Shown: positions 10,541 through 64,000 of the stretch, piece after piece
How positions within the stretch are numbered: the stretch's first letter is position 1
How the letters are laid out: each line of letters begins with the position of its first letter
Source of the DNA: an uncultured Alphaproteobacteria bacterium
Lineage (GTDB): Bacteria; Pseudomonadota; Alphaproteobacteria; Rs-D84
Length of the DNA stretch: 64,000 nucleotides
NCBI GenBank assembly: GCA_947175875.1
Contig: CAMWON010000002.1
Location: 1,216-65,215 of the forward strand
Direction of reading: 5' to 3'
Program-made: the position numbers and the translations under genes
The notes under the pieces: model-generated
Told to the model about the DNA's origin: nothing
Databases searched by the model: none
The model's input: only the letters and a program-made list of their open reading frames with translations

Positions 10541-10585
10541 TGGAAATTCAAATTTCTGGAAATAATAATCGAAATAGGATATAAT

Positions 10586-10770
10586 TCCCATCGTAATAGG
10601 GCTTCCTGTTATGCGAGCGTGGAAATCTCGCGACAAAAATCGCCTGCGCAGGCGTTAAATGCTCCACCCAACGCGGGTTGGAGACTGGTTGAATATAAAG
10701 AATAGACCAGGCATGAATTTTTGCATGATTTCCACCCTCCAACCGCCCTATATGTTTGGCGGTCTTTTTT
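10586..10770 (+). ncRNA. Structured RNA element, copy A of a 3-member family (unclassified)
   Basis: TATAAT at 10580-10585, with the same TATAATTCCCATCG as copy B. Long-range helix GAGCGTGGAAATC (10615-10627) / GATTTCCACCCTC (10727-10739). Hairpin CTCCACCC-aacgc-GGGTTGGAG (10662-10683). CAACC, then ACCGCC-loop-GGCGGT + CTTTTTT terminator ending at 10770. No ORF. Confidence 0.55.
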
Positions 10771-10880
10771 GTTCATGCCCCGGTTTTGCGTCTTCTTAAA
10801 CAATAAAATTGTGCCGGGGCTCTTATGTGTTGTTCAGTTCCGCGCGCGTTGCCTGACGTGCCATTGGGGACCCCTGTGTG

Positions 10881-10916
10881 ATAAAAATAAAAACCATCGG
10901 AAAAATTCAGATGGTT
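10881..10916 (-). terminator. Intrinsic terminator of the RusA-like gene; carries the CTCCAACC module
   Basis: Minus strand: stop-AAAAAA-CTCC-AACCATC-loop-GATGGTT-TTTATTTTTAT. It has the same CTCCAACC-plus-hairpin layout as the 3' ends of elements A, B and C. Confidence 0.6.
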
Positions 10917-10925
10917 GGAGTTTTT

Positions 10926-11495
10926 TTACACCATAAACGGCAGGTTTTCCAGTGTCCCTTCGACCACGCGGACGTTTACGTCAATCCACATAAATATGGT
11001 GTCGGGTGTGCGCGGTATGTCCGGACAGAACATATCGGTGGACAACAGGTGGCTGGTATTTACCGACAATTTGGTTATCAAATGGTCGTCGTCCAGCAGT
11101 GTGTAAATCGGACCGATATCGCGCGGCGTGTTTGCACCGATTTCGTGTTCATTTTGCGGCGCGCGCAGGCCGTCGAACAATGTCTTGATGCGGTTGTCGA
11201 TGTCGGACCGCGTCATGCCGACGATTTCCGGGTGCATCATCTGGATGTCCAGTTCCGCAATCAATTTCAAATTCGGCGTTATAATCGGGTTCCAGTCGAT
11301 GCCCCCGATATGGCGTGTGGTAATGGGGCTTTTGGTGGCGCCGGGCATCATGAACTTGGTCATGTTGTTCCATGGGCTGTGTTCAACCAGCTTTTTTAAC
11401 TGGGGGTGAAACTGCATGCGGATATCCGAAATATGCTGGGCGCGTTTCTTTGGATTAATTAAAATTTCTCCGAAATATAGCAGTTTGAACTTCAT
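10926..11495 (-). CDS. Hypothetical protein with RusA-like endonuclease motif
   Basis: 189 aa, RBS AAGGGGA 9 nt upstream. RSDIDNRIKTLFDGLRAP...LLDDDHLITKLSV resembles E. coli RusA [30 protein letters not shown] (from memory). The overlapping plus-strand ORFs were rejected. Confidence 0.6.
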   Translation of the reverse strand: MKFKLLYFGEILINPKKRAQHISDIRMQFHPQLKKLVEHSPWNNMTKFMMPGATKSPITTRHIGGIDWNPIITPNLKLIAELDIQMMHPEIVGMTRSDIDNRIKTLFDGLRAPQNEHEIGANTPRDIGPIYTLLDDDHLITKLSVNTSHLLSTDMFCPDIPRTPDTIFMWIDVNVRVVEGTLENLPFMV

Positions 11496-16044: not shown

Positions 16045-16400
16045 CGCAAAATAAAGACATTTCCTGAAGGTAAGGACCATTGCGATTTTACGCATACCGC
16101 GCGGAATATCGTTTGGCATATGGTTCGATTTCTTACGCAGACATACATCTGTTCCGCCGTCACCGGATAATATATGGAAACGGCCGCCAAAAAATTGGTG
16201 GCCGGGGCGTTCGAAAATCATAAGAACCATGACTCCTCAGGCCTTTCGGTTTCCCGTATTGTATAGCCATCGGCACCCCGGCCATTTCCACGAGCACGAG
16301 GAATAACGGTGCGACGCACCGCATGGATTATTTCGATGCGTTTATCGCACCGGTTCTTAAAGGCTTTCGACAGCCCCAAACCAATATCCCTACTGGTTCG
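16045..16400 (-). pseudogene. Possible degraded IS66-family TnpB (ORF2) remnant
   Basis: Two minus-strand frames read ...RGADGYTIRETERPEESWFL* and MVLMIFERPGHQFFGGRFHILSGDGGTDVCLRKK. They loosely follow the remembered IS66 TnpB pattern (MRKGFDGL..LV.E.L..DP.SGHLFVF.NRR.D.IKIL.WDG.G.CL..KRLE). The remnant is frameshifted and truncated. Confidence 0.3.
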
Positions 16401-16440
16401 GGGTTATTATAGCATTGCTTGTGATAAAAATCCAGAGATA

Positions 16441-17001
16441 TTAAAAATTATACGATACGCCCAGACCGTAAAATGCGTATGAATGATTTTCGTCGGCCGT
16501 GTTGCCGTTCGAGAAATGCTGAACAAAAATTTCACCGCCCCAGTGCTCTGTAAAACGATATCCGGCCGATATTTTAAACTGAAATACCAGTTTTGCCCCC
16601 AGACGGTCGTTCTCTTTTGCCTGGAAACCGACGCCGACACCCGGGCCGACGTACCAATCGTCGCCATACAACAATGCGACATCACCGGATGCCCATACCA
16701 TCGGGATTGAAAAATCAGTCCAGTCCCAGCCGTATGCACGACCCATGCCGACTGTTTCGCCAAAGTTCATAGACTGGCGCGCGGGCAGGGTAAAGAATGT
16801 TGTCGGTTGCGAATACTGAATATTTGGCAGCATATAAAACGGCACGAATTGCGATGGCGGCGGGACAAGGAATCCGCTGTTTACACCTTGACCGATATTA
16901 ACGACAATTTGATTTTGGGCGGTGCCAAAATATGGGTTCCAATCGGCATTTGCCGCACATGCGACGACCGAAGATACAAAAGCAAATACGATTTTTTTCA
17001 T
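16441..17001 (-). CDS. pagL: Outer-membrane acyloxyacyl hydrolase, lipid A 3-O-deacylase (PagL-like)
   Basis: ORF 16441..17037; start MKKIVFAFVSSVVACAANA (17001) preferred. HFSNG catalytic-type motif and C-terminal GLGVSYNF beta-signal. Confidence 0.7.
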   Translation of the reverse strand: MKKIVFAFVSSVVACAANADWNPYFGTAQNQIVVNIGQGVNSGFLVPPPSQFVPFYMLPNIQYSQPTTFFTLPARQSMNFGETVGMGRAYGWDWTDFSIPMVWASGDVALLYGDDWYVGPGVGVGFQAKENDRLGAKLVFQFKISAGYRFTEHWGGEIFVQHFSNGNTADENHSYAFYGLGVSYNF

Positions 17002-25220: not shown

Positions 25221-25317
25221 CTGGATTGCTTCACATACGTTCGCAATGACAATAGTGATGCAACACCCGGATTGTCCACATTGTCATTGCGAGGGGCGCA
25301 GCCCCGTGGCAATCCAG
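25221..25317. repeat. Palindromic MITE-like element, copy 1 (97 nt)
   Basis: CTGGATTGCTTC...TCGCAATGACAAT...TGTCATTGCGAGG...GTGGCAATCCAG. The outer and inner arms are self-complementary. Confidence 0.8.
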
Positions 25318-25716: not shown

Positions 25717-25804
25717 CTGGATTGCTTCGCTATCGCTCGCAATGACAATGAGTCTGGAATGACTGTCATTGCGAGGAGGCGTCTGCGCCGACGTGGCAAT
25801 CCAG
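25717..25804. repeat. Palindromic MITE-like element, copy 2 (88 nt)
   Basis: It has the same four conserved blocks as 25221-25317, in the same orientation; the central part differs. Confidence 0.8.
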
Positions 25805-25811
25805 TAACTAT

Positions 25812-25839
25812 TTGCAAATCGTAATTTTCCTGTTATAAT
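25812..25839 (+). promoter_or_regulatory. Sigma70-type promoter of RNA element B
   Basis: TTGCAA-16 nt-TATAAT, the same hexamers and spacing as the tRNA-Met promoter. Confidence 0.65.
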
Positions 25840-25845
25840 TCCCAT

Positions 25846-25998
25846 CGCATCGGGTGATACCCGGTGTGAGGTGTCATAACCTCTCAAAGTGAAAACTCCA
25901 ATATGGTTGGAGGCCTGCGATATATTTGAATAAGCGGGACTATTACTTTGGTAGTTATGAACCTCCAACCGCCCTTCATCACGGCGGTACGTTTTTTT
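25846..25998 (+). ncRNA. Structured RNA element, copy B (unclassified family), leader of a small HTH gene
   Basis: 5' hairpin CGGGT-gat-ACCCG. Long-range helix GAGGTGTCATAAC (25868-25880) / GTTATGAACCTC (25954-25965). Hairpin CTCCAA-tatgg-TTGGAG (25896-25912). CAACC, then CCGCC-loop-GGCGG + T7 terminator. The RBS GGAGG begins 13 nt after the T-run. Confidence 0.6.
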
Positions 25999-26020: not shown

Positions 26021-26290
26021 ATGAAAAAAATAGATGAAACAACCGCGCGTCTGGGCGTGGCAATGCGGCATGCGCGTAATAAATGTAAAATGCCCTTGGA
26101 CGAGGCGGCGGCAACACTGCGAATAATGCCGGATGAATTATACGAATATGAACGTGGCCGTGTTATGTTGCCATATGATATAATGGAGCGCGTGTTTATA
26201 ATGGGCTATAAAATGATGATGATACGCATGCTGGAAAGTGTGTATCGACGACAAAGAAAAATGTTTAACAAATTTAATCAAAATAAATAA
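26021..26290 (+). CDS. Small XRE-type helix-turn-helix protein
   Basis: ORF 26009..26290. ATG 26021 is preferred because GGAGG lies 5 nt upstream. LGVAMRHARNKCKMPLDEAAATLRIMPDELYEYERG is an XRE/Cro-like HTH. Confidence 0.6.
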   Translation: MKKIDETTARLGVAMRHARNKCKMPLDEAAATLRIMPDELYEYERGRVMLPYDIMERVFIMGYKMMMIRMLESVYRRQRKMFNKFNQNK

Positions 26291-31626: not shown

Positions 31627-32084
31627 GAAATTTATCATCTGTCTTTCGTTTGTTCGTTTTTGTTTCCGGTCATGTATGTCCAATACACTCCCGTTACAAA
31701 AACATTACAATCCGCAACATCTAAGACATTAATCGCTAAATGGGCAGCATAATTGAATCCCCTGTTTTGGGATTTTTTCTTTAATTTTTTATTGCTTTAA
31801 TTTTATCTGTATCTATAATCAAATCTGAACTGGTGGGGACATTGGTTCGGGGCTGTCACAAGCCTGTAATCTCCGGTGCAGAAAAAGAAGGACATCGTTA
31901 ATCCGATACTCTGGATTTTTGCATCGTTATATATCCCTGACTTTGAAAAAAAGGTCGGGGGGCTGTTCGTTATACAACAGGTTTTTACCAAAAGCGGCAG
32001 AATCATTGAGATACTGATTTGTGAACTCCCCGACTGCTCTTTATTTTGGGCGGTCGTTTTGTTTTTCAACAGAAAGGAGTGCAA

Positions 32085-55562: not shown

Positions 55563-55637
55563 GCGGGCATAGTACAAAGGCTAGTATGCAAGCCTTCCAA
55601 GCTTGAAATGCGGGTTCGATTCCCGCTGCCCGCACCA
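55563..55637 (+). tRNA. tRNA-Gly(TCC)
   Basis: GCGGGCATAGTACAAAGGCTAGTATGCAAGCCTTCCAAGCTTGAAATGCGGGTTCGATTCCCGCTGCCCGCACCA. It forms a full cloverleaf with anticodon loop CTTCCAA. Confidence 0.9.
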
Positions 55638-55643
55638 TAGATT

Positions 55644-55730
55644 GGGCGTGCGCCGGAGTTGGAGAGCCGGGGCAGACTGTAAATCTGTTGGCTTAAGCCT
55701 GAGCTGGTTCGAATCCAGCCACTCCCACCA
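55644..55730 (+). tRNA. tRNA-Tyr(GTA), long variable arm
   Basis: GGGCGTGCGCCGGAGTTGGAGAGCCGGGGCAGACTGTAAATCTGTTGGCTTAAGCCTGAGCTGGTTCGAATCCAGCCACTCCCACCA. Anticodon loop CTGTAAA. It has one acceptor mismatch (C4:T69) and C at position 8. Confidence 0.8.
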
Positions 55731-55731
55731 G
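55721..55731 (+). repeat. Direct repeat (tRNA-Tyr 3' end), copy 1
   Basis: ACTCCCACCAG. Confidence 0.7.
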
Positions 55732-55735
55732 AATG

Positions 55736-55767
55736 AACGACCGTTATCATAACGGTCGTTTTTCTTT
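55736..55767 (+). terminator. Intrinsic terminator of the tRNA pair
   Basis: AACGACCGTT-atcat-AACGGTCGTT followed by TTTCTTT. Confidence 0.8.
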
Positions 55768-55844
55768 GGATTTCTAAGGTTTTTTAGAGTTCGAAAGTAT
55801 CGCTGCACCAATATGCCATTTTTTACCGATTTTCGAACTATATT

Positions 55845-56912
55845 TTATTTTGTAAATCTAATCTGTAAATTCAAATTGATAAATATGTCTCCGTTTTTCT
55901 CGTAAATACTACCAAATTTATGTCTTGTGGTGCTAGGAGTGTCTAACTTTGTATTTTCAAACAAATAATCCTTAAATGCGTCTTCGTTATATAAATGGTA
56001 GCATACTAGTACTCCATCTTCACGAACAACAATATAACCACCATAACTAGACAGACGGTCATTCCACTCACTTTGTGGGACCATACCAAGAGCAATTATT
56101 TTCAAGAAATTTCTAACTTTTGATATGATTTGTGGCTCGGTTAAGTCAAACTTGGTACTCTTAAACACCATATTGCATAATTCGTTCATAGTATTTGGAC
56201 AACCTAAATAGTATGCTAGTAGTATTTCTGCAACGATTTGTGGCATTTGTGTATCTATCGTTTTAAGATTGTCTGCAAAAATTTTGCTTGTCATTCCCAC
56301 AGATGTAATTTGCCCACCACACCGAATAATTTCTTTCAACCTATCCCTAACTTTACTTCGAGTAGATATGGCATTAATTTGGTGAACATCTGTATTTAAT
56401 CCAGATATTTTATAAATAAAATTTGTTCCCGTACTTGCGTTTAAGAGAGTTGAAGGACAACCTACACGAGATTTTATAGAAAATCCATAAGGTTCTGTTT
56501 CAGATATTATATCGTCTTTGATTGTTGCTATTATATCTGATTTTTGCCCTGAATTTGCTTTTATTTTGCTCAAAGAAAATACAGGCATTAAACGTTCTGC
56601 CTCATAAATCTCAAAAGCAGCTTCATCAGCATTTTGAATTCTATTAAATATTCGTTTTGTTTTCTCTGACAATCCATCTGTAGAAACAATACGAATAGGT
56701 GCTCTATTGCTTATTATGGATACCTTATCTGCTTCAGATAGGTCATAGGTTATATGTTCGCCAGGATTGTCATTTCTGAATATTTTTAAAAAATTATAAA
56801 AATGTCCTGTCGGCTCAAGATTGTTGTTAGCCGCTGCAATTTTGTGGTCTGCAAATAGACTATACAATACGTATAATTCTGACCATTCACCCTTATTGGC
56901 GGTTAAACTCAT
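55845..56912 (-). CDS. Type II restriction endonuclease, HpaII-like
   Basis: 355 aa. The N-terminus NKGEWSELYVLYSLFADHKI matches my recollection of the RE_HpaII family start (GEWSE.Y....LL). It overlaps the methylase stop by 4 nt. Confidence 0.55.
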   Translation of the reverse strand: MSLTANKGEWSELYVLYSLFADHKIAAANNNLEPTGHFYNFLKIFRNDNPGEHITYDLSEADKVSIISNRAPIRIVSTDGLSEKTKRIFNRIQNADEAAFEIYEAERLMPVFSLSKIKANSGQKSDIIATIKDDIISETEPYGFSIKSRVGCPSTLLNASTGTNFIYKISGLNTDVHQINAISTRSKVRDRLKEIIRCGGQITSVGMTSKIFADNLKTIDTQMPQIVAEILLAYYLGCPNTMNELCNMVFKSTKFDLTEPQIISKVRNFLKIIALGMVPQSEWNDRLSSYGGYIVVREDGVLVCYHLYNEDAFKDYLFENTKLDTPSTTRHKFGSIYEKNGDIFINLNLQIRFTK

Positions 56913-57772
56913 TGTGCGGCCTTTAATATTTTTATGATTTCTTTTGCAACCGCCTCTATAGCAGGTACCGCTACAGAATTGCCTAATTGCTTCATTGCTT
57001 GAACTTCAGACACAGGAAACTCAAAATCGGAAGGAAACCCTTGCATTAAAAGCCCCTCTTTTGGCGTAAGCCGTCTTATTACCCCATCAACTAAATAGGT
57101 GTCCCAATTACGTCTGTCGCTTATATTTGAATGACGCCCGCCAACACGTAAAGTAAAGCCAATATCTCTATCAACATGACCTCCGAAAATGTCACTCATT
57201 GTAAGTTTTAACTTTTTTGGTTTTGGAAATTCAAAATCTATATTTTTGTCTTTAAAACCAACCATAAATAAACGTGGTCTGTGTTGCGGAACGCCAAAAT
57301 CAGAAGCCCTAACTATTTTATAAAAGAAAGAATATCCCAATTCTTCCTCTATTACGCGTTTTATTGTTGCAAAGGTCTTTCCATTATCATGCTGTAACAA
57401 ACCGCGAACATTTTCTATAAAAAAGGCTTTTGGTTGTTTTTCTTTTATTATCCTAACAATGTCAAAAAACAGTGTTCCGCGTGTTTCATTAAACCCCTTT
57501 TTCAAGCCTACTTGTGAAAATGGCTGACAAGGAAATCCGCCTGTCAACACATCAAAGTCCGGGATACTAGCTGCATCAACTTTTGTTATATCGCCTGCGA
57601 ACATGTTCTTTTTAAACAATTTTGAATCTATCTTACTAAAGTTGCATTCGTATGTTTTTCTTGCAAATTCGTCCCATTCTGACGCAAATACACATTTTGC
57701 CCCGCAATTATGAAAGGCCAAATGAAACCCGCCGATACCAGCAAATAGGTCTATAAAAGTAATTTTTGACAC
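56909..57772 (-). CDS. DNA (cytosine-5)-methyltransferase
   Basis: 287 aa, GTG start after AGGAGG. Motif I FIDLFAGIGGF, motif IV GGFPCQPFS, motif VI ENVRGL, motif X QLGNSVAVP. Confidence 0.9.
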   Translation of the reverse strand: MSKITFIDLFAGIGGFHLAFHNCGAKCVFASEWDEFARKTYECNFSKIDSKLFKKNMFAGDITKVDAASIPDFDVLTGGFPCQPFSQVGLKKGFNETRGTLFFDIVRIIKEKQPKAFFIENVRGLLQHDNGKTFATIKRVIEEELGYSFFYKIVRASDFGVPQHRPRLFMVGFKDKNIDFEFPKPKKLKLTMSDIFGGHVDRDIGFTLRVGGRHSNISDRRNWDTYLVDGVIRRLTPKEGLLMQGFPSDFEFPVSEVQAMKQLGNSVAVPAIEAVAKEIIKILKAAQ

Positions 57773-57790
57773 ACAATCCTCCTATGCAGC

Positions 57791-57971
57791 AAAAAACCAC
57801 CTAAGAGTTCTTTGGTGGTTGGAGGTAAGACCTATCATTCTATGAAAATAGTGTGCTTATTTTGCCAAAAGCATTATTCACAACCCTCCAACCGCAGTTG
57901 GAGGTATTTTTCGTCCCCACGGACGCATAGAATGCAGAGGGTCTTAACCTCAATGCCAATCTCTTGGCATC
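57791..57971 (-). ncRNA. Structured RNA element, copy C (unclassified family), leader of the M-R operon
   Basis: Minus strand: TATAAT (57983-57978); hairpin ATGCCAA-gagat-TGGCAT; GAGGTTAAGACC (57951-57940) pairing with GGTCTTACCTC (57832-57822); perfect hairpin CCTCCAAC-tgcg-GTTGGAGG (57904-57885); CAACC; ACCACC-loop-GGTGGT + T6 terminator (57820-57791). AGGAGG follows 6 nt after the T-run. Confidence 0.6.
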
Positions 57972-58125
57972 AGTCTTATTATATCATAGTATTTTCATGC
58001 CCGGCTAGTACTTTATTTGTAATGGATGTTTTATTATGATGACCTAATTTTTTGCTTAAACGTCTTTATATCGTGTCCAATGCTAAGGAATGCATTAAAA
58101 TCTGTGGTCAGAAAATTGCTCATTG

Positions 58126-63625: not shown

Positions 63626-64000
63626 ATTTGTCGGCAGTTTTGAAAAGGTGTCGGCCCTGCCGAACACTCATTTCCCAGAGTACGCGTTTGTCGGGCGCAG
63701 TAATGTTGGAAAATCGTCGCTGATTAACGCGATTGTCGGTGCGCCGGTGGCGCGAACATCGAATACGCCGGGGCGGACACAGTCGTTAAATCTGTTCAAC
63801 GTGGACGACCGTGCGATGATTGTGGATTTGCCCGGATACGGATATGCGCGTGTCGCGCGCAGCGACGCGATGCGGTGGCTGCTTCGGTTGGAGGAATATT
63901 TGCGCGGCCGGCGCCAGTTAAAGCGTCTGTTTATTTTAATTGATTCACGCATCGGGCCGCGGGATTCCGATTTGGACTTGATGGATTTCTGTGATGCGAA
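63618..64000 (+). CDS. engB: Ribosome biogenesis GTPase YihA/EngB (5' part; runs off window end)
   Basis: Own translation from ATG 63618: MIKFVGSFEKVSALPNTHFPEYAFVGRSNVGKSSLINAIVG...NTPGRTQSLNLF...VDLPGYGYA. It has G1 and G3 motifs and is open to 64000. Confidence 0.85.
   Translation, partial: MIKFVGSFEKVSALPNTHFPEYAFVGRSNVGKSSLINAIVGAPVARTSNTPGRTQSLNLFNVDDRAMIVDLPGYGYARVARSDAMRWLLRLEEYLRGRRQLKRLFILIDSRIGPRDSDLDLMDFCDA

Follow-up and report, generated by a model that had tools for sequence, protein, structure and literature searches.

A Multi-Copy Family of Structured 5′ Leader RNAs in Uncultured Gut Alphaproteobacteria: A Probable Bistable Attenuator Upstream of a Restriction–Modification Operon

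The stretch of DNA analyzed here (64,000 nucleotides of contig CAMWON010000002.1, assembly GCA_947175875.1, from an uncultured Alphaproteobacteria bacterium; hereafter the window) bears three copies, A, B and C, of a structured RNA element. Copy C occupies the leader of a restriction–modification (R-M) operon that encodes a C5 DNA methyltransferase (M) and an HpaII-type endonuclease (R). A preliminary description, made from the sequence of the window, had taken the element for an unclassified structured RNA extending from its own promoter to a terminator. In this work, we describe the parts of copy C, provide evidence that it belongs to a family of more than 200 distinct leaders shaped by strong selection at the RNA level, and argue that it is most likely a cis-acting bistable attenuator.

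Results

Parts of the Leader Upstream of the M-R Operon

All the parts of copy C listed in the preliminary description were found on the minus strand at the positions it had given. The whole leader, in the order of its transcript, comprises the following features.

57983-57978 (−), hexamer of an extended −10 box TGaTATAAT, the TG lying two bases upstream (read from the sequence)
about 7 nt downstream of the −10 box (−), predicted transcription start
57953..57970 (−), P1, the 5′-terminal hairpin AUGCCAA-gaga-UUGGCAU (sequence and RNAfold)
57951-57940 (−), GAGGTTAAGACC in DNA, GAGGUUAAGACC in RNA (read from the sequence)
57937..57951 (−), S1, a local hairpin GAGG...CCUC, the loop of which contains X
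57946-57940 (−), X (UAAGACC), the 5′ strand of the long-range helix X–X′
57926..57935 (−), Y (GCAUUCUAUG), the partner of Y′ in the P6 loop (minimum free energy fold)
57912..57925 (−), P3, a variable hairpin CGUCC-GUGG-GGACG (fold and alignment)
57911-57905 (−), A-rich linker AAAAAUA, 3′ of P3
57904-57885 (−), P4, a perfect hairpin CCTCCAAC-tgcg-GTTGGAGG, in RNA CCUCCAAC-ugcg-GUUGGAGG (sequence and fold)
57904-57897 (−), α (CCUCCAAC), the 5′ arm of P4
57893-57885 (−), β (GGUUGGAGG), the 3′ arm of P4
57852..57884 (−), P5, with the stem UGUG/CACA, a conserved loop GAAUAAU...AAAAUAAG and an inserted distal hairpin
57832..57851 (−), P6, a hairpin CUAU...AUAG, the loop of which is Y′ (57847-57836)
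57826..57832 (−), X′ (GGUCUUA), the 3′ strand of X–X′, single-stranded in the alternative fold
57832-57822 (−), GGTCTTACCTC in DNA, GGUCUUACCUC in RNA (read from the sequence)
57817..57825 (−), α′ (CCUCCAACC), the alternative partner of β, with its last 4 nt forming part of the terminator 5′ arm
57791..57820 (−), intrinsic terminator AACCACC-loop-GGUGGUU followed by U6 (sequence and RNAfold)
57783-57778 (−), Shine–Dalgarno (SD) sequence AGGAGG of the M gene

The promoter of copy C has no −35 box, and a simple consensus scan for promoters and terminators detected neither of the two signals, because this box is absent and the 12-nt terminator loop lies beyond the limit of the tool; RNAfold did predict the terminator hairpin, with the U6 run directly after it. 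The RNAs of the three copies are all far more stable than shuffled sequence (z = −7.6, −4.0 and −5.5). When the whole window was compared with Rfam 15 at the gathering thresholds, five tRNAs and nothing else were found, so that none of the three loci gave a match. These results, along with about 200 relatives of the leader described below, bear out the proposal that the unit from promoter to terminator encodes an unclassified structured RNA.

A Leader Family in Gut Alphaproteobacteria

Relatives of the leader were sought in a collection of species-representative genomes with the pattern CTCCA-N2-14-GGTTGGAG-N40-70-CCTCCAACC, which matched at least 118 stretches as compared to about 27 estimated by chance; about 118 of 125 matches have the full architecture. 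Among the matches listed, almost all belong to uncultured Alphaproteobacteria of the gut (Candidatus Enterousia, and metagenome-assembled genomes (MAGs) labelled “Rickettsiales” or “Alphaproteobacteria”), the host animals being ruminants, horse, rabbit, chicken and human. The second scan used no anchors other than the motifs of the P5 loop and of P6 and is therefore unbiased with respect to α, β and α′. It recovered the same clade.

Alignment A3 was built from 115 cores. On a MAFFT alignment, RNAalifold recovered S1 and β:α′ alone, because the variable hairpins were misaligned, and the structure of the covariance model R1 (127 positions, 22 base pairs) was therefore written by hand. Applied to the fetched loci, R1 gave 110 matches, including 7 copies missed by the exact pattern, and the second scan added 94 further R1 matches (alignment A4), with scores of 35–120 bits in both sets. 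Together, the two pattern scans of public genomes gave more than 200 distinct relatives. Several MAGs carry at least 5–7 leader copies each; one complete genome of the host clade comprises 958,618 bp.

The members share a common order of elements, from 5′ to 3′: the −10 box, P1, S1 with X, Y, P3, the A-rich linker, P4, P5, P6 with Y′, X′, one A, α′ and the terminator. In 203 of 207 members, S1 is preceded at a distance of 20–45 nt, most often 27–28 nt, by a −10-like hexamer. P1 differs in sequence from copy to copy, and a hairpin occupies that place in every member inspected. The family form of S1 is GNGG...CCNC, and P5 has the conserved loop GAAUA...AAUAAG with an optional inserted hairpin. 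P3 is missing from the short-form leaders, which are found only upstream of small proteins. As a separate observation, the leaders of the UGACC class (L135, L148, L158, L206 and about 35 others) are 160–185 nt long because their P3 bears an additional GC-rich hairpin and, after it, a U-run, like an internal terminator; they stand almost exclusively upstream of secreted Cys-rich proteins.

A phage origin of the family was considered and rejected. The window had no megablast match among 50,697 phage records, the leader pattern matched just three of the 2.9 million viral contigs in IMG/VR (L119, L120 and L121), and the comparison of the downstream proteins with PHROG gave a weak helix-turn-helix (HTH) match and otherwise none. 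Two of the three leaders on contigs classed as viral (L119 and L120) are identical, score 117.8 bits and precede a 316-aa secreted protein. In the literature on leader motifs, Enterousia RNAs and structured RNAs of microbiomes, we found no account of this leader family. We conclude that the family is undescribed and that copy C is a genuine member of it.

Covariation of the Helices

Five helices have covariation support in the family alignments; the values for X–X′, S1 and P6 below refer to A3. The X–X′ helix is paired in 99% of the sequences, with double changes at all 6 pairs and four pair types per position (for example, AU 52, CG 45, GC 10 and UA 6). S1 (columns 3-5/14-18) is paired in 96%, one of its pairs being GC in 60 sequences, AU in 25 and GU in 17, and columns 160/180 of P6 are UA in 76 and AU in 29. 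The observed covariation measures were reached in 0 of 500 shuffles, and sliding the 3′ partners lowered the paired fraction to 31–55% from 96.8% in register. The segment Y pairs with its own Y′ at −8.1 kcal/mol vs. −1.7 kcal/mol with Y′ of other copies (p = 8e-57; 87 distinct loops among 100 sequences). When the sequences are folded one by one, the stems of P5 covary (GUCGC/GCGAC, GUUGC/GCAAC, GCUGU/ACAGC and others), and the P5 loop motif is conserved across the alignment. Even the copies within one genome differ throughout, with the pairing kept.

One pairing from the preliminary description calls for revision. Since CCUC is invariant, covariation lends no support to the long-range closing pairs GAGG/GGGG:CCUC; the partner with which the 5′ GNGG covaries is the local CCNC, and the two form the hairpin S1.

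β Is Complementary to Two Segments, and All Three Change Together

The segment β is complementary to both the upstream α and the downstream α′, and the three sequences change together from one class of leaders to another.

Main class: α CUCCAACC, β GGUUGGAGG, α′ CCUCCAACC
Class with a long P3 insert (about 40 sequences): α CUCCUGAC, β GUCAGGAGG, α′ CCUCCUGACC
Class with α CUUCUGCC, β GGCAGGAGG, α′ CCUCCUGCC
Class with β GGCUGGAGG, α′ CCUCCAGCC
Class of about 15 sequences: β GGUUGGAGU, α′ ACUCCAACC
Class with β GGUUGGGAG, α′ CUCCCAACC
Class with β GAUUGGAGC, α′ ACUCCAAUC

The class cores are AACC, UGAC, UGCC, AGCC, AAUC and GGAGU/ACUCC. In about 190 of 207 distinct sequences, which represent at least six core sequences, the 4-nt core of β is the exact Watson–Crick complement of the α′ core. 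The α segment is looser at its loop-proximal end (AACC 62, AACU 22, AAUC 17), and the same holds for the unbiased set of the second scan. Its variation retains pairing throughout, and the changes mostly preserve wobble pairs, with CG replaced by UG 22 and 19 times and AU by GU 5 times in A3, and the spacing between α and β varies from 3 to 14 nt. The wobble-keeping changes and the variable spacing both suggest that it is the RNA, and not an operator in the DNA, that is under selection. Both main classes occur within a single MAG (L005 vs. L135, L165 and L169), and in the main class β starts with GGU.

The covariation that the preliminary description had suspected from copies A, B and C thus holds in 115 and then in 94 further sequences. 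The element is genuine, selection on its RNA is strong, and it has no class in Rfam 15.

Coupling to the Terminator and to the Downstream Gene

A hairpin and a U-run were strictly defined in 150 leaders, and in 132 of these the terminator 5′ arm takes in the last 3–4 nt of α′; the U-run starts at a median distance of 18 nt after α′ (interquartile range (IQR) 17–20). An open reading frame (ORF) on the same strand, preceded by an SD sequence, starts 30–80 nt after α′ in 153 of 192 evaluable leaders (80%; median 50, IQR 47–56). The gap between the U-run and the SD sequence is too small to accommodate a separate promoter, which indicates that the downstream gene is expressed by read-through only.

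Among the 153 downstream genes, 106 encode proteins with signal-peptide-like N-termini (predicted to be secreted), 33 encode small non-secreted proteins, mostly of the XRE type, and the remaining 14 include R-M and a helicase. A Pfam comparison of 80 downstream proteins revealed XRE-type HTH domains, Listeria-Bacteroides repeats and an outer-membrane beta-barrel domain, most proteins being without a match. The idea that the HTH genes lead operons was rejected, as they are monocistronic, each with its own terminator.

In 74 of 205 leaders, the SD-like GGAGG of β is followed 4–14 nt later by a GUG or UUG codon, from which a short ORF starts that is variable in length and unconserved. In principle, ribosome loading just after β is conceivable when β is unpaired.

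The R-M Operon and Its Relatives

The operon served by copy C is composed as follows.

55845..57783 (−), downstream operon including the SD sequence
57772-56909 (−), C5 DNA methyltransferase with a GTG start (PF00145, 1e-89)
56912-55845 (−), HpaII-type endonuclease (PF09561, 3e-97)

The closest M homologues (80–86% identity) belong to other gut Alphaproteobacteria, and in two of the loci (L225 and L275) a family leader scoring 100 and 108 bits, respectively, ends 41–43 nt upstream of the orthologous M start, as in the window. The bodies of these leaders differ from that of copy C, whereas the segment from the terminator to the SD sequence is alike. In two other loci (L226 and L229), the M orthologue stands behind a divergent leader with a different 5′ domain, which is missed by R1 (L226:1298-1482; α CCCUGAC, β GUCGGGGAG, α′ CUCCCUGACC, the latter overlapping the terminator). 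Yet another structured region, with a 14-nt long-range complement UUUCCCAAUCUGAC / GUUAGAUUGGGAAA, is located upstream of M in L227, L228 and L230. The next-closest M homologues after those of gut Alphaproteobacteria are found in genomes of Saccharibacteria/Candidate Phyla Radiation.

The R-M block (55563-57772) has a GC content of 0.36 vs. about 0.5 for the window and adjoins tRNA-Gly and tRNA-Tyr; the R-M genes look like a horizontally acquired island behind a native leader. In 10 relatives, no leader was present within 4 kb of the ABC-F orthologue (54–58% identity), so that a conserved synteny of copy C with the neighbouring ABC-F gene was rejected: the leader travels with the R-M cargo and not with the ABC-F flank. 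The link to the timing of R-M expression drawn in the preliminary description stands insofar as the leader together with M recurs in two other genomes, but most members of the family precede genes of secreted proteins or XRE regulators.

Copies A and B and Other Matches in the Window

10580..10772 (+), copy A, from the −10 box through the terminator (72.4 bits with R1)
25834..25998 (+), copy B, from the −10 box through the terminator (75.1 bits with R1)

Copies A (10592-10772, +) and B (25846-25998, +) share the plan of copy C, so that the common architecture ascribed to the three copies at the outset was confirmed on the sequence. Copy B is a short form without P3 and is followed by an 89-aa XRE-type HTH gene (26021-26290; HTH_31). 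Copy A has no same-strand ORF directly behind it, and a near-identical orphan copy is present in a related MAG (L018). Two more hairpins lie in the region behind copy A (10773-10935). One is gccccgg...ccggggc, at about 10777-10822; the other, AACCATC...GATGGTT at about 10893-10930, has T-runs, resembles a terminator and probably serves the convergent gene 11495-10926.

With the filters off, R1 recognized exactly three copies in the window (84.8, 75.1 and 72.4 bits), the next match of 19 bits being an antisense echo. Two weak matches, at 16325-16444 (−; 12.8 bits, E = 0.17) and 31850-32031 (+; 8 bits, E = 2.9), are probably noise, though degenerate copies are conceivable. The motif CCTCCAACC occurs 6 times in the window vs. 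0.26 expected; a putative fourth copy at 63886 was discarded as a chance match within a coding region. The long intergenic region upstream of copy B also bears a palindromic element resembling repetitive extragenic palindromes, with inverted GTCATTGCGAG / CTCGCAATGAC pairs at 25240-25293 and 25736-25775. Its 11-mer was found in 18 related MAG loci as well, often as inverted pairs 30–45 nt apart, with a maximum of 8 in L127.

Discussion

A Bistable Attenuator as the Probable Mechanism

Taking the pairings and the terminator coupling together, we believe that copy C probably acts in cis as a bistable attenuator, being one of a multi-copy family of 5′ leader RNAs. The unit would extend from its own extended −10 promoter to the intrinsic terminator, with the ribosome-binding site of the served gene about 25 nt beyond, and would obey a four-segment logic in which α pairs with β, β with α′, and α′ with the 3′ arm of the terminator. 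In State I, β would pair with α as P4, and X and Y would pair with X′ and Y′ into a long helix, thereby leaving α′ free for the terminator base, so that transcription would stop to give a short RNA of about 180 nt. In State II, the β:α′ helix would close the 3′ half as a three-way junction (β, P5, P6, single-stranded X′ and α′), the hairpins S1 and P6 would form, and 3–4 nt at the foot of the terminator would be sequestered, thus allowing the polymerase to read into the M-R operon. The trigger may be a ligand or a protein, or else the short RNA may act as its own trigger.

The main argument for a switch is that each covarying element is used in one of the two states. The mutually exclusive pairings of CCUCCAACC by a terminator, which the preliminary description had likened to the layout of an attenuator, are supported by about 200 relatives. 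We infer that one fold replaces the other, with no partial coexistence of the two as pseudoknots, and that State II suppresses termination.

Several observations weigh against this mechanism. When only nested pairs are allowed, State I exceeds State II in stability by a mean of 10.9 kcal/mol and is favoured in 99% of the members; State II would therefore need a stabilizer, a kinetic route, or pseudoknots that lie outside the energy model. Moreover, S1 with X–X′ and P6 with Y–Y′ could coexist as pseudoknots, and it is for this reason that we infer, rather than state, a strict alternation. The β:α′ helix takes away merely 3–4 of the roughly 9 terminator pairs, and 39 of the 192 evaluable leaders, including copy A, are not followed by a suitably placed ORF. 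Among the downstream genes there is no common metabolic theme that would point to a ligand. A leader peptide was rejected as well: an SD-preceded ORF of at least 6 codons is present in 88 of 205 leaders, with no consistent stop position, and most of these ORFs begin at chance GUG/UUG codons right after β.

Alternative Explanations

The product of the unit may instead be a trans-acting antisense RNA of the C4/sRNA-Xcc1 type, for which the position before a gene would be secondary; we consider this unlikely, but it is the main rival of the attenuator. The 3′ domain (from β to α′ along with the terminator) would then be freed by termination, perhaps with RNase P cleavage at the GGU of β, and the loop Y′ and the single strand X′ would recognize other mRNAs, with X and Y resembling a1 and b1 of phage P1. 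Such an explanation would agree with the sub-threshold matches of the 3′ half to sRNA-Xcc1 in five independent members, with the 3′-half topology, which is that of phage P1 C4, with the placement of X (7 nt) and Y (8 nt) like that of a1 (7 nt) and b1 (8 nt) in P1, with the stricter conservation of β:α′ as compared to α:β, and with the existence of orphan copies lacking a downstream ORF; in A. baumannii, furthermore, C4-like RNAs occur in multiple copies and undergo processing at GGW (PMC5320573). However, X′/Y′ are no more complementary to their own translation-initiation region than to those of other units, the 64-kb window has no second X+Y site, the Rfam C4 model never matches the leaders and R1 does not match P1 c4, and the covariation of S1 and the fixed 47–56 nt spacing to the start codon in 80% of the units are left unexplained. 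A little less likely still is a ligand-sensing riboswitch, in which the multi-helix junction, the P5 loop and the A-rich linker would bind a global small molecule and thereby choose the partner of β. The core is indeed large, conserved and multi-stem, with invariant unpaired nucleotides, the expression platform is of the terminator type and overlaps α′, and the presence of many copies per genome before genes of surface or secreted proteins resembles the distribution of the c-di-GMP-I riboswitch. A riboswitch is nevertheless hard to reconcile with the downstream genes, which share no metabolic theme, with the short forms, where P3 is dispensable, and with the L226/L229 class, which keeps just the α/β/α′/terminator logic and the 3′ domain; none of the results indicated a ligand.

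We regard as improbable a constitutive leader, that is, a 5′ stabilizing structure combined with a leaky terminator, which would set a fixed low expression with no regulated switching. The strong thermodynamic preference for State I, the 5′-terminal hairpin throughout the members and the failure to find a sensor (no conserved upstream ORF) would fit it well, but several independent triple changes that keep β:α′ would have no explanation, and neither would the covariation of S1 and P6. As to an element acting at the DNA level, i.e., half-site repeats of an XRE operator or a mobile repeat like a miniature inverted-repeat transposable element, this is poorly supported and very improbable. In DNA, α and β do make up an inverted repeat with α′ as a third half-site, and XRE genes are frequent neighbours; yet the α–β spacing ranges from 3 to 14 nt, the substitutions preserve G-U wobble, the copies in one genome diverge throughout while remaining paired, there are neither terminal inverted repeats nor target duplications, and 2.9 million viral contigs yielded 3 matches.

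A further possibility, to which we give little credence, would combine the attenuator with the action of its own product. The terminated RNA might refold, perhaps after RNase P cleavage at β, into a C4/sRNA-Xcc1-like form with X′/Y′ exposed, and might then pair with X/Y of nascent transcripts of the same gene, thereby blocking State I and leading to antitermination through β:α′. If this were true, each of tens of genes for surface proteins, regulators and R-M would be under an RNA-only positive-feedback (bistable) control, and the diverse X/Y “address codes” would prevent cross-talk among paralogous leaders in a small genome.

Significance of the Leader Family

The leaders add a large and well-supported structured RNA family, with more than 200 distinct sequences and probably tens of copies per genome, for an uncultured gut lineage, and they probably decide whether the gene behind is transcribed, here an R-M operon. 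For such operons, this would be a third route of control besides C proteins and antisense RNAs. The main products under the family seem to be proteins of the surface or secreted ones, along with solitary XRE regulators and one R-M system or more, so that a sizeable share of the cell–host interface may be RNA-gated. The three-way covariation of α, β and α′ offers an unusually clean natural record of a terminator/antiterminator/anti-antiterminator switch.

Comparison with Known Regulatory RNAs

The preliminary description had not recognized the leader as any described class. This holds in that no Rfam threshold was reached, but it does not hold fully for the 3′ half, which has sub-threshold matches to sRNA-Xcc1 and the topology of phage P1 C4. 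Rfam scans at permissive E-values covered copies A to C, two strong relatives and the divergent member, as well as 16 small loci; they gave sub-threshold matches to sRNA-Xcc1 plus noise. The scores with sRNA-Xcc1 (RF02221) were 25.4 bits for copy B, 32.5 for L023, 36.8 for L012, 34.3 for L066 and 28.5 for L226, all below the gathering score of 53, and copies A and C had no match to it at E ≤ 10. In the five members, the 3′ half of the leader (β to α′) aligns to the whole model (positions 1–87) in the State II fold, with a 9-bp closing helix, two hairpins, a single strand of 6–7 nt, and then RCC and U's; of this fold, β:α′, P5 and P6 are each supported by covariation in the leaders. In addition, L226 contains the exact AUACAAUAC of the sRNA-Xcc1 consensus. 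Within integron cassettes of Xanthomonas, sRNA-Xcc1 lies upstream of the symE toxin gene and in the same orientation (bioRxiv 10.1101/2025.06.18.660453), and in Xylella it is multi-copy and annotated beside C4 and isrK RNAs (PMC12189769). Apart from their lower scores, the leaders differ from sRNA-Xcc1 in having about 90 extra nt at the 5′ side (P1, S1/X, Y, P3 and α) and an explicit terminator overlapping the closing helix, as well as in the host clade and the cargo genes.

The likeness to C4 of phages P1/P7 (RF01695) lies in the order and the sizes of the elements. In the annotated immI leader of phage P1, a1 (7 nt) and b1 (8 nt) stand upstream of the 77-nt C4 RNA, which folds into a closing stem, a hairpin, a hairpin with the loop b′ and a single-stranded a′ (7 nt); these elements correspond to X, Y, Y′ and X′ of the leaders, where X–X′ and Y–Y′ covary strongly. 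Both RNAs sit inside the leader of the operon they precede, and in both the specificity nucleotides change jointly at three places. At the same time, the C4 model matched none of five leaders at E ≤ 10 and none of 16 loci at E ≤ 1, and R1 scored below 4 bits on P1 c4. Phage P1 has downstream target sites a2/b2 over the icd ribosome-binding site, whereas the leaders are without such sites: the duplex energies of X′/Y′ with their own initiation regions and with those of other units are close to each other (−9.63 vs. −9.27 kcal/mol, p = 0.10), and a k-mer search found no second X+Y site in the window. A C4-style antisense targeting of the own ribosome-binding site was ruled out by these two results. 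Unlike the leaders, phage P1 lacks both a terminator that overlaps the closing stem and an annotated α-like decoy, and C4 represses translation, while the leaders are coupled to an intrinsic terminator.

In their 1:2, 2:3, 3:4 logic, followed by a U-run and then by the gene, the leaders resemble the attenuators of the trp type and the terminator platforms of riboswitches. They differ from the trp type in the lack of a conserved leader peptide, and from both in that additional covarying long-range helices (X–X′ and Y–Y′) and the hairpins S1 and P6 would join the switch.

The distant link to both sRNA-Xcc1 and phage P1 C4 suggests that scattered “sRNAs” make up a single broad class, namely switches embedded in the leaders of genes that are risky to express, and the leader family offers a testable mechanism for sRNA-Xcc1. 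Because of the sub-threshold scores, the absence of a match to the C4 model, the failure of R1 to recognize P1 c4 and the lack of a2/b2 sites, we place the leaders outside the C4 and sRNA-Xcc1 families and file them as a leader-embedded regulatory RNA of the kind exemplified by C4 and sRNA-Xcc1, coupled in this case to an intrinsic terminator.

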